A stretch of DNA of 61,742 nt, from NCBI GenBank assembly GCA_018650165.1, contig JABIGM010000027.1, positions 1 to 61,742 on the forward strand. The letters are read 5' to 3'. Below are positions 5,719 to 52,808 of this stretch, piece by piece. The notes below the pieces were generated by a model. The model saw nothing but the letters and a program-made list of their open reading frames with translations. It made no database searches and was not told the origin of the DNA. The DNA is from Methanobacteriota archaeon. Lineage in GTDB: Archaea > Thermoplasmatota > Poseidoniia > Poseidoniales > Poseidoniaceae. The first letter of the stretch is position 1. Each line of letters begins with the position of its first letter. Position numbers and translations under genes: made by a program.

Positions 5719-6015
5719 TCAAGCCTGTGGTGCAATTGTATCAGTAGATACGATTTCATGACCATCATTCGATATGCGATTTAGGAATTTACCAATTAAC
5801 AAACACGCAATAATTCCCCAGACAAGTAATTCAATTCCTATAATTATCCAAGCGAAGGACCCTGCTGCATCTAACATAATGTTTGTATCATAAGGAACTC
5901 CATTGATTGCAAGGTATGCAACTTGGGAAAACAAAGATGCTCCAAACCATACAAAAACCGCGTACCAACTAATAGTCGATAAAGCCCAATCTTCCCGGTA
6001 TTCTTCTCTTTCCAT
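5719..6015 (-). CDS. Hypothetical 2-TM membrane protein
   Basis: Two hydrophobic segments. The ORF fills the gap between its neighbours and has a TTTAAG box 25-30 nt upstream. Confidence 0.6.
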   Translation of the reverse strand: MEREEYREDWALSTISWYAVFVWFGASLFSQVAYLAINGVPYDTNIMLDAAGSFAWIIIGIELLVWGIIACLLIGKFLNRISNDGHEIVSTDTIAPQA

Positions 6016-6089
6016 ACTATTAATTTGACTTCAACCCTCTTAAATGATACCCTTTTATGTTTCATCTAGAGCGGAAATTTAGTGAAAAA

Positions 6090-49561: not shown

Positions 49562-51676
49562 TCAGACTGGCTGTAGAGTCTCATATCCGCCGGGCCGCAT
49601 GAGTCTTCCATCTCTGCACAGCGCGTCGATTAGGTCCTCTGCAACATCTCTACTGATGTCACTACGGCCTGCTTCGGTCAAAACATCGTTCAGAGACACT
49701 ATTTCTCCAGTTTCAACATGTAATCTTCGAACGATTTCAAGAATTGCTCGCTCACGATTTCGGGCTGTCGCTTTCTTTCCGGATTGAAGAGTTGTTTCGT
49801 CAAAATTTTCACCCATCAATTCATGCCGCCATAATTTTGTAAGACGGATTGAACGTTCTGCATCCTCAATAGTTGCTTCTTCTGATAAACGCACCCTTGC
49901 TGAAGCTTGAGCTAATCGGTAAAGACCTTCAATTGCTCTTGCAGAAATTGCAATCGAATCGAATGACTCTCCACCTTTTCTTCTAGTTTCAACATAGTAT
50001 TCTCTAAGTGCATTTTGCGCATCTGATGTTAGTTGTGGGTGGATTGTGCGTTTGGCTAATGCAATGTACTTTCTAATTAAATCACGATTTACAATTCCTT
50101 CTTTTTTATTGAACCCTTCAAATGCCGCTGTTTTTGTAGGGTCGACTGCGCTGCCTTGGTCGATTAATATCTCAGGAGTTGAATCCGCTCGATTATTCAT
50201 GATGTGGTTTGCAATTCTTGTATCATGGTCTTCAGCAGGTTGATCGGTTAGTAACCAAATTACATCAAATCGTGAAATCAATGCCGGCTTGAGATTGATT
50301 TGTTGGGTAAATGGCACCTCGGAAACAGATTGGAATCTCCCTGCTTTGGGGTTTGCTGCGGCTAGAATTGCGCAGCGGGTAGAGAGTGTTGCATTGATTC
50401 CTGCTTTCGATATTGAGATTCTCTGTTGCTCCATGGCCTCGTGCATTGAAGAGCGATCGTTTTCATTCATCTTATCGAATTCGTCAATAGCAGCTAATCC
50501 AAGGTCGGCTAAAGCAAGTGCACCTGCCTCTAAGGTCCAACGGCCATCTGCGGCTGCATCCTGAACGGCAGCTGCAGTTAATCCAGCGGCAGAGGCTGAC
50601 ATTCCAGATGTGAAACGGCCACGGGGTGAAATTTGTGACATGTAAGACAACAATTGAGATTTAGCGACACCGGGGTCTCCCATGAGCAAGATGTGGATAT
50701 CCCCGCGCAGTCTAGTCCCATCTTTTGCCTTAGATGCAACTCCTCCGAAAAGTTGTAACATCAGCGATTCTTTCTGGCGACTCATTCCAAAAATGGATGG
50801 TGCTATTGAATTTGTTAACAATTCATGAATGTCGTCGCGGCGTGCGAGTTCTTTGATTTCGTGTTCATCTTCTTCAGAAATTTGGATTTCTTCCAAAGGA
50901 ATATTTTCTCTCTGAATACTATGGATTCTCAAAAATATATCAAAAATTGGAGTTTCTTTTCCTGATTTGCGTTGTGACCGTACAAATAACATCCCATTGA
51001 CTGTAACTCGGTCACCAGGATTTAGTTGGCCTGCTAAATCATGCTCTGTAATACAGAGAATCCTTTCAGGTTGTACGCCTCCTCGCAAATTTTCTGGTGG
51101 CTCTTGTAATTCAATGAATTGTGTGTTGATTAAAATTGAGTCTTCGACCCTCTGAACGAATCTAGTTTGTCCTTTACGCCTACCGCACCCACCTTCAATT
51201 TCAAAACATTCAATCGGTTCAATCAATTCTTGCTCGTTAGGTTGGCTAACTCTAGTTGAATGTCCACACGCCACACAAACAAATGAGCCTTCATAAGTTC
51301 TCGGAAGTACACTACCGATTTTGGTTGCAATGGCATCCACTGAAATCATCGAACCCAAATCTTCGCTTCGAAGTTGACGAACTGTTCGATGAGAATCTGA
51401 AGGTAGTTCAATTATTCGGACAAATGCGACTATACGCGGAGAACCCAATTCGGAAAGCAGTAAGCCTAGTGCCTGGTTTGCTGCCTGCGTGTTGTTTTCA
51501 GGCTCTTCGACTATCGAAAGAGCAAAATCCGGATCAAAAGATTCGATGTCTCGGTATGAGATTTCTAGTGATTGAACATCTGGCCATGATACTTCCAAAT
51601 TGTGAATAGATTCACTGTAATTGTCAAGAAGTAGTGAGCGCCATCTTGCAGGTAGGTCAAATTCTTGAATTGTCAT
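49562..51676 (-). CDS. mcm: MCM replicative DNA helicase
   Basis: Zn finger CVACG...CFEIEGGC, Q.IELQE, APSIFG, Walker A GDPGVAKSQ, GLTAAA, LEAGAL, Walker B IDEFDKM, HEAMEQQ, Arg finger SRFD and a C-terminal wHTH. Confidence 0.96.
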   Translation of the reverse strand: MTIQEFDLPARWRSLLLDNYSESIHNLEVSWPDVQSLEISYRDIESFDPDFALSIVEEPENNTQAANQALGLLLSELGSPRIVAFVRIIELPSDSHRTVRQLRSEDLGSMISVDAIATKIGSVLPRTYEGSFVCVACGHSTRVSQPNEQELIEPIECFEIEGGCGRRKGQTRFVQRVEDSILINTQFIELQEPPENLRGGVQPERILCITEHDLAGQLNPGDRVTVNGMLFVRSQRKSGKETPIFDIFLRIHSIQRENIPLEEIQISEEDEHEIKELARRDDIHELLTNSIAPSIFGMSRQKESLMLQLFGGVASKAKDGTRLRGDIHILLMGDPGVAKSQLLSYMSQISPRGRFTSGMSASAAGLTAAAVQDAAADGRWTLEAGALALADLGLAAIDEFDKMNENDRSSMHEAMEQQRISISKAGINATLSTRCAILAAANPKAGRFQSVSEVPFTQQINLKPALISRFDVIWLLTDQPAEDHDTRIANHIMNNRADSTPEILIDQGSAVDPTKTAAFEGFNKKEGIVNRDLIRKYIALAKRTIHPQLTSDAQNALREYYVETRRKGGESFDSIAISARAIEGLYRLAQASARVRLSEEATIEDAERSIRLTKLWRHELMGENFDETTLQSGKKATARNRERAILEIVRRLHVETGEIVSLNDVLTEAGRSDISRDVAEDLIDALCRDGRLMRPGGYETLQPV

Positions 51677-51746
51677 AGTAATCTCCCCAACCAGACACCT
51701 TGAGCCGTTGTCGACCCTCTATAATGATTGAGTCTGTACTTTTCTT

Positions 51747-51767
51747 CCCCTTCATTTCCACTGGAAT
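51747..51767 (-). promoter_or_regulatory. Origin recognition box (ORB) with G-string: ATTCCAGTGGAAATGAAGGGG
   Basis: The + strand reads CCCCTTCATTTCCACTGGAAT. The reverse complement matches the archaeal ORB consensus TTCCAGTGGAAA-n4-GGGG. The site is intergenic, 71 bp upstream of mcm. Confidence 0.72.
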
Positions 51768-51784
51768 CTAATCGCATCACATAA

Positions 51785-51807
51785 CCTCCACTGGCTTCCA
51801 TTGGAAC
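51785..51807. promoter_or_regulatory. Two mini-ORB-like half-sites (CCTCCACTGG; TTCCATTGGAAC)
   Basis: Both share the TCCAnTGG core with the full ORB about 20-40 bp away. Confidence 0.45.
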
Positions 51808-51845
51808 ACCGCCAAGCACATTTCTATGAAGCCCATCGCAGGTTC

Positions 51846-52808
51846 ATGCCCGCCCACTCTTTTGAACCCATCAGAGGAAAAATCGAAAGATTCTCGTTTT
51901 CTTCTCTAAATCTAGAAAATCAAATCGGAGACCCCTTAGAACGGGAAGTCATGGTACATATTCCACCTAATGCAACTGGTAAATTACCTTGTATTATCTA
52001 CCTTGCACCATTTACTGGAACCGGTTTTGCTCGTGCTAATTGGAAGGCTTTTGGGGAAACGCTACCGCAGAGGCATGAACGACTGGTAAAAGACGGTTTA
52101 ATGGAACCATCGATACTCGTTATGCCAGATACCTTCACTTCGCTTGGAGGCAACCAATTTGTTGATTCTGCAATCGTTGGCGATTGGGGGACATGGTTGA
52201 ACACTGACCTACGGAATGAAATTAGTTCGCGATATGATGTCAGTGGGTTTGGACTGGTTGGAAAATCTAGTGGTGGCTATGGCGCCTTAGTTCGAGGTAT
52301 GTTGGACGATTGTTGGGCTGCAGTAGCATGTCATTCCGGAGATTGTGGTTTTGAAATCCTATATGGTATTGAATTGCCAAATACTCTTACACAAATTAAG
52401 CCTCATGGCGGGGTTGATGGTTTTCTCTCATATGTCAAAAATAGCAATTCGTTACGAAGTGCTGATTTTCACACATTGATGATTCTGGCTATGGCTGCTA
52501 CTTACAGCGATGGAACTCTTCCAACCGACGAAAATTGTATATTTGATGATGATAAATGGTCTGAGTGGAAATCATGGGACCCTCTAAACATGATCGAAGA
52601 TCACCAAAATCTTCCTTCTTGCTGGATTGACGTTGGCGATTCAGACCAATACAATATCCAATATGGTTTGCGACAACTTCACAACCGAATGATGGAATTA
52701 GATATTGGCCATGAGTGGGAAGAATTCCCGGGAACACATAGTGGAATTGACCACAGATTGGACCTTTCACTTCCCTGGATGGCTTCGAAGATTCAATCGA
52801 CATCATGA
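51846..52808 (+). CDS. Alpha/beta-hydrolase esterase (enterochelin esterase/S-formylglutathione hydrolase-like)
   Basis: Nucleophile GKSSGGYGA, DVGDSD and PGTHSG. ATG 51846 is preferred over TTG 51801. Confidence 0.8.
   Translation: MPAHSFEPIRGKIERFSFSSLNLENQIGDPLEREVMVHIPPNATGKLPCIIYLAPFTGTGFARANWKAFGETLPQRHERLVKDGLMEPSILVMPDTFTSLGGNQFVDSAIVGDWGTWLNTDLRNEISSRYDVSGFGLVGKSSGGYGALVRGMLDDCWAAVACHSGDCGFEILYGIELPNTLTQIKPHGGVDGFLSYVKNSNSLRSADFHTLMILAMAATYSDGTLPTDENCIFDDDKWSEWKSWDPLNMIEDHQNLPSCWIDVGDSDQYNIQYGLRQLHNRMMELDIGHEWEEFPGTHSGIDHRLDLSLPWMASKIQSTS

Follow-up and report, generated by a model that had tools for sequence, protein, structure and literature searches.

An ORB element upstream of mcm is conserved in sequence, orientation and position across the archaeal order Poseidoniales

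The window analysed here is a stretch of 61,742 nucleotides, contig C42 of a Poseidoniales genome (G000) that comprises 1.75 Mb in 66 contigs and is 80% complete. Its minus strand carries mcm (49562-51676, ATG at 51676), which encodes a 704-aa protein matching Pfam MCM (E 6e-89), MCM_OB and MCM_lid; a divergent esterase-like gene lies on the plus strand (51846-52808, PF00756). The intergenic gap between them, at 51677-51845, measures 169 bp, and a search against Rfam found no RNA families in it. Read along the minus strand towards mcm, the gap contains in order a conserved block (CTTGGCGGT, 51816-51808), a mini-ORB (TTCCAATGGAAG, 51806-51795), a third box of the CCAnTGG type (GCCAGTGGAGG, 51795-51785), a full ORB (ATTCCAGTGGAAATGAAGGGG, 51767-51747), a predicted TATA-like box (ATTATAG, 51725-51719) and a Shine-Dalgarno-like GGGGAG (51688-51683) that sits 7 nt ahead of the mcm ATG. 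The G-string of the full ORB points towards mcm. The mini-ORB shares this orientation and stands 40 nt further upstream (start to start), abutted by the CTTGGCGGT block and overlapped by the third box, which lies 11 nt past it. The TATA-like box begins 22 nt past the last G of the ORB.

The box at 51767-51747 matches all 14 specified positions of the ORB consensus, comprising the TCCAGTGGAAA dyad, the spacer and the G-string. An initial annotation of this DNA had read the same minus-strand letters at this position, and had described a 169-bp gap with a TTATA-like box before mcm (TTATAG, at 51724-51719); both readings agree with the sequence. The two extra TCCAnTGG cores that it reported are also present, but its coordinates for them were off by 1-2 bases, the cores lying at 51806-51795 and 51795-51785. 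It was likewise right that cdc6/orc1 is absent from the window, and the two Cdc6_C matches of the genome fall on contigs C27 and C38.

A box of this kind might be a chance or neutral match without function, and the 11-nt core taken by itself does nothing to dispel that idea: three matches at ≤1 mismatch occur in the window against 1.3 expected, which is not significant. The full box behaves differently. Counting ORBs genome-wide was one of the checks that the initial annotation had proposed, and the pattern TCCANTGGAAA-N3/4-GGGG returns 4 sites in the 1.75-Mb genome against 0.018 expected. The same pattern is found 0 times in 12 Markov-simulated genomes, and its reversed form 0 times in the genome itself, while relatives carry 2-8 matches to the real box against 0-1 to the reversed control. 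Together with the recurrence of the box before mcm in every one of two sets of relatives (55/55 and 78/78 loci), where the flanks are randomised, these counts leave the chance reading with a negligible probability, and conservation effectively refutes it. The observation is real and stands well beyond chance.

Conservation was assessed in 55 mcm upstream regions from three families and 15 genera of Poseidoniales. These comprise 29 genomes of the same genus, our own included (MCM 70-100% identical), one genome of another family together with 21 genomes of two other families (MCM identity 42-50% in the 21), and four genomes from three other genera of the same family. The initial annotation had suggested seeking the motif in other Poseidoniales genomes: an ORB at ≤2 mismatches is present in all 55, always on the mcm strand and with the G-string towards mcm. 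A partly overlapping collection of 78 named Poseidoniaceae loci with enough upstream DNA has the box at ≤1 mismatch without exception, and in both collections it lies 85-110 nt ahead of the mcm start. Across the 26 sequences from outside the genus, the only high-information columns (~1.6-2 bits) are TCCA-TGGAA and GGGGT; the columns flanking the ORB carry ~0 bits. The gene upstream of mcm differs between families, the esterase-like neighbour not being kept outside the genus/family, and the element therefore travels with mcm.

The arrangement around the box is also retained to a considerable degree. In 43 of the 55 loci, 22 nt separate the G-string from a T(T/C)ATA motif; the interval is 23-24 nt in five more and is lost in about seven. 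Upstream of the ORB, 26 loci have a like-oriented mini-ORB at 40-42 nt and 20 have one at 50-54 nt, two spacing classes that differ by approximately one helical turn. The third box is kept within the genus as GCCAnTGGAGG, with a free middle base, and is partly kept in other families. A Shine-Dalgarno-like GGAGG/GGGGG block is conserved in relatives. The CTTGGCGGT block is kept throughout the genus, even in members whose MCM is only 70-77% identical, and possibly forms part of the divergent esterase promoter.

Several further features of these upstream regions deserve mention in their own right. A TCCAATTGGA-type box with a CAATTG core occurs ~16-20 nt upstream of the mini-ORB in several mcm promoters of other families (L120, L122, L124, L125, L129). 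One box of the same type is found before orc1-1 in G000 (C27, around 12150), and five CAATTG boxes are clustered in an AT-rich divergent gap on another contig of this genome (C20:920-1090); genome-wide, these boxes are not enriched in intergenic DNA. In addition, a Poseidoniales mcm together with its ORB occurs on two public contigs that bear other titles, Flavobacteriales bacterium and Salipiger bermudensis (L286, PAZG01000017.1; L345, CAXQWT010000040.1). Both contigs are probably mis-binned or mislabelled.

Beyond the order, we examined 36 genomes representing 33 further families of the phylum, and none of them has an ORB at ≤1 mismatch before mcm. Boxes at 2 mismatches appear in five of the 36, against ~0.55 expected by our own estimate, and in three of these five the box faces mcm (L165 in G113, L155 in G110, L160 in G095). 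These degenerate ORB-like boxes, from other Thermoplasmatota families, lie 100-190 nt before mcm, and G113 has a mini-ORB and an ORB in tandem. With the pattern used, the survey indicates that the link between ORB and mcm is universal in Poseidoniales and at most patchy elsewhere. The boxes of G113, G110 and G095 suggest that the link may be older than the order.

The initial annotation offered two readings of the locus, namely a minimal mcm-linked replication origin and a promoter directly controlled by the initiator. The composition of the gap speaks against the first. As that annotation had itself remarked, there is no opposite-orientation G-string ORB in the gap, and our search extends this to ≤2 mismatches: all of the boxes share the minus strand, as direct repeats. 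Its remark that no AT-rich element is obvious also stands, since the most AT-rich 40 nt reach 67.5% AT, only the 29th percentile of the intergenic regions of this genome, and the gap as a whole is 52.7% AT. Inverted ORBs, an AT-rich element and an adjacent cdc6 are all missing from this site, and in the relatives G051 and G088 the switch in gene orientation falls away from mcm. An adjacent orc1/cdc6 gene is usual at archaeal origins, not obligatory.

A much better candidate for the origin lies elsewhere in the same genome. Of its four boxes that match exactly or nearly so, two are on contig C21, one on the minus strand (2491-2509) and the other on the plus strand (2646-2664). They make up an inverted pair ~155 bp apart in a 366-bp gap (2453-2818), which has a beta-CASP RNase gene on one side and a small ferredoxin gene on the other. 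Among all intergenic regions of the genome, it is this gap that contains the 80 nt richest in AT (86%). Neither of the Orc1/Cdc6 genes, on C27 and C38, adjoins the pair. A minus/plus pair with a separation of 153-165 bp recurs in G018, G031, G036, G049, G051, G038, G088, G123 and G136, and one box of the pair was found in G060, such that every relative examined carries the pair or a box. G051 belongs to a different family, and its pair nonetheless occupies the same ferredoxin/beta-CASP gap (186177-186444).

Because our own genome is in 66 contigs, gene orientation was examined in relatives: the rebuilt complete 1.60-Mb genome of G051, and an 800-kb part of a second complete genome, G088 (CM001443.1). 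The cumulative gene-orientation curve of G051 has its minimum at 185,651, beside the pair at 186,219/186,372, and its maximum at 941 kb; on each arm, 60-62% of coding bases run in the direction of replication, and an excursion of this size was reached by 0 of 2000 permutations. In G088, where the inverted pair spans 203746-203929, the minimum falls at 203,049, against boxes at 203,746/203,911, and plus-strand coding rises from 37% on the left of the minimum to 67% on the right. The mcm gene lies at 307 kb in G051 and 306 kb in G088, on the rising arm of the curve, with no local minimum at mcm in either genome. These observations indicate that the inverted ORB pair in the ferredoxin/beta-CASP gap, away from cdc6, is the probable oriC of Poseidoniales. 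Our literature search found no report mapping Poseidoniales origins, and this placement is useful for estimating growth rates from metagenomic coverage.

Nucleotide skew, which the initial annotation had suggested computing, is less decisive. Within the window, GC skew merely follows gene strand. The raw cumulative skews of G051 (GC, AT and Z-curve) are noisy, and coding strand confounds them: GC peaks at 193 kb, and AT peaks at 342 kb, 35 kb from mcm. Correction for coding strand at third codon positions (AT3) yields only a broad plateau from ~80 to 400 kb, so skew alone cannot separate 186 kb from 307 kb. For these reasons we relied on the gene-orientation curves instead.

It could still be argued that the mcm gap is a secondary or dormant origin, at which Orc1 on the ORB and mini-ORB would load MCM and start replication. 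In its favour, the box is a genuine, conserved ORB; archaeal genomes may contain more than one origin; and the main oriC is itself apart from cdc6. The raw AT-skew maximum of G051 is also closer to mcm than to the ORB pair. We nevertheless regard such an origin as unlikely: the boxes are direct and not inverted, AT content in this gap of just 169 bp peaks below the intergenic median, the spacing to the TATA-like box is fixed, and the orientation curve has no dip at mcm in G051 or G088. The minimal mcm-linked origin of the initial annotation is disfavoured by the same direct repeats and lack of an unwinding element, and, in two complete relatives, by an orientation switch that falls on the ORB pair 100-121 kb away. 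Its other reading, an Orc1-controlled mcm promoter, fared better. Conservation, constant orientation, the 22-nt TATA spacing and the linkage to mcm all came out in its favour. Taken as a whole, the interpretation given in the initial annotation is partly supported.

The most plausible reader of the box is one of two Orc1/Cdc6 paralogs. In known ORB-bound crystal structures, the protein contacts the dyad through its winged helix and places its AAA+ domain towards the G-string; if the same holds here, the ATPase domain would face the BRE/TATA. The paralog on C27 (10823-12115) is close to proteins of this kind, aligning with Aeropyrum ORC1 (2V1U) at E 4e-99 and with Sulfolobus Orc1-1 (2QBY_A) at E 1.5e-95. 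The paralog on C38 (2795-3979) is far more distant from these structures (E 1e-35).

Further ORBs lie in the neighbourhood of the C27 paralog. A 760-aa gene 3-4 kb from orc1-1 (loci L034, L208) encodes a protein whose N-terminus resembles a wHTH domain by eye and has no Pfam hit. Two ORB elements are associated with this gene (C27:5511-5521 and 6008-6026) in 27 of 27 genus loci: a mini-ORB ~83 nt before the start, followed by an AT-rich ATGTGTAA..AAATGTAA stretch, and a full ORB inside the reading frame at codon 139. Variation in the protein falls exactly on those residues where the ORB leaves bases free, and G051, whose protein is only 30% identical, has both elements too. These ORBs may mark another target of Orc1, or else a minor origin linked to cdc6. 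A further candidate, a mini-ORB (TTCCAGTTGAAA) in the promoter of the C38 cdc6 gene, was rejected: it is not kept in relatives, and its TTCCAG half varies. Only a TTGAAAGTTCAATAAC block is kept in this promoter (C38:3980-4032; L035/L178), in 30 genus loci; its position ~25 nt before the cdc6 ATG suggests a leaderless transcript.

These neighbours bear on the question of whether a protein other than Orc1-1 reads the mcm box. The C38 paralog or a winged-helix regulator might recognise it, the site then being ORB-like through shared ancestry of the binding domain. The genome does have two paralogs, in Sulfolobales Orc1-2 works purely as a regulator of transcription (PMC9738581), and the wHTH gene with its own ORBs is close to orc1-1. 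Set against this, the mcm box equals the oriC boxes over all 14 specified positions, G-string and trailing T included, and the Orc1-1 type is the paralog known to read the ORB motif. A different reader is in our judgement quite improbable.

The element itself has clear relatives among known origin sequences. Match to the consensus, occurrence of the same motif at the genome's own origin (the C21 pair), and excess over chance with conservation all mark it as an ORB. The published ORB of Ca. Methanomassiliicoccus intestinalis matches the mcm-upstream box at 20 of 22 positions (PMC4153887), and the ORBs of oriC1-type origins (Sulfolobus oriC1 ORB1-3, Pyrococcus oriC, Aeropyrum ori1 and predicted Methanomassiliicoccales origins) share its TCCAGTGGAAA dyad, 4-nt spacer and GGGG(T). 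Unlike those origins, the mcm gap has a single full box with direct mini-boxes, and neither an AT-rich element nor a nearby orc1; its box keeps a fixed 22-nt spacing ahead of a TATA-like box and lies ~100 kb away from the inferred origin. ORBs and initiator occupancy away from origins have precedents. Solitary ORBs were noted in Ca. M. intestinalis (PMC4153887), and Samson et al. 2013 reported multiple non-origin ChIP-seq sites for Sulfolobus islandicus Orc1 and altered transcript profiles in orc1 mutants (PMC3607249). In neither organism, however, was a specific gene, promoter geometry or conservation attached to such sites, and none was reported at mcm. Pyrococcus ChIP-chip placed Cdc6/Orc1 only at oriC and found an isolated ORB-like 13-mer unbound (PMC1904270), so sequence alone is no proof of occupancy.

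Two systems in which initiator-family proteins or origin motifs act at promoters offer instructive comparisons. At bacterial DnaA-box promoters (dnaA autoregulation, nrdAB), an origin motif is likewise reused in front of replication genes, coupling initiation and expression. The differences are that protein and motif are unrelated, the machinery here is archaeal, the target is the helicase gene, and the present case is drawn from sequence. The Orc1-2 of Sulfolobales is, like the proposed binder, an Orc1/Cdc6-family protein at promoters, described as a dedicated, DNA-damage-responsive transcription regulator (PMC9738581). That paralog does not serve as an initiator, and it has another short motif and a damage regulon, whereas the mcm gap has a canonical origin box and presumably the initiator paralog. 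The ORB is therefore a known element; its fixed place in what appears to be the promoter of the helicase gene is unreported as far as our literature search found, which returned no account of an ORB at an mcm promoter.

We conclude that the ORB, mini-ORB and half box probably constitute an initiator-read upstream element of the mcm promoter, a reading in which we have moderate confidence. As expected of an initiator-controlled promoter, the motif has a constant orientation in 55/55 loci and the 22-nt TATA spacing in 43/55. We propose that an Orc1-1-type initiator, most likely the C27 protein (C27:10823-12115), is bound at the ORB, which, given its spacing to the TATA-like box, would lie immediately ahead of the BRE/TATA, at ~-70 to -52 from the inferred transcription start. 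A second monomer would probably occupy the mini-ORB, whole helical turns upstream (40 or ~52 bp). The bound initiator might then modulate recruitment of TBP/TFB, and the supply of helicase would thereby be tied to the amount or nucleotide state of the initiator. For the sign of this regulation we favour activation; this is a guess, prompted by a site placed like an upstream activating site, clear of the TATA and the start.

The location of mcm relative to the origin invites two extensions of this argument. The distance from mcm to the inverted pair is 121 kb in G051, 102 kb in G088, 109 kb in G049 (C1) and 100 kb in G060 (C7), and mcm is co-directional with the fork in all four of these genomes, which represent two families and are those having mcm and the pair on one contig. 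The ORB cluster could accordingly be imagined as a site for titration or inactivation of the initiator, ~100 kb from oriC and duplicated early, with any effect on mcm being secondary. In E. coli, the datA locus likewise groups initiator boxes at a distance from the origin that is moderate and conserved. It differs in having many boxes plus IHF and in acting through titration and ATP hydrolysis, whereas the mcm gap has 2-3 boxes phased with a core promoter. The conserved distance of 100-121 kb and the shared fork direction would suit a titration site, but two or three boxes offer low capacity, fixed phasing with the TATA-like box is not needed for titration, and the distance may merely reflect synteny. 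We consider this explanation very improbable.

A second extension takes the promoter element as its starting point. At ~100 kb from oriC, a distance that is conserved, the mcm site would be copied early in each round of replication. Orc1-1 might conceivably be a transcription factor with a small conserved regulon, consisting of mcm and the wHTH gene, and combined with early copying of mcm this could form a replication-cycle timer that both gates helicase synthesis and titrates the initiator. We regard such a timer as an unlikely extension of the initiator-read promoter.

The Poseidoniales (marine group II) are uncultured and among the most abundant planktonic archaea, and we know of no cell-cycle regulators in this lineage. 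To our knowledge, it is largely uncharted how archaea match their supply of replication proteins to initiation, and the non-origin roles of Orc1/Cdc6 hinted at by unpublished Sulfolobus ChIP-seq sites have never been tied to a defined target. Here, comparative genomics yields a precise one: one box, at one position, before the replicative helicase gene, throughout an entire order. If Orc1 binds and regulates there, the element would represent an archaeal counterpart of DnaA-box promoter control, and a direct circuit from initiator to helicase.
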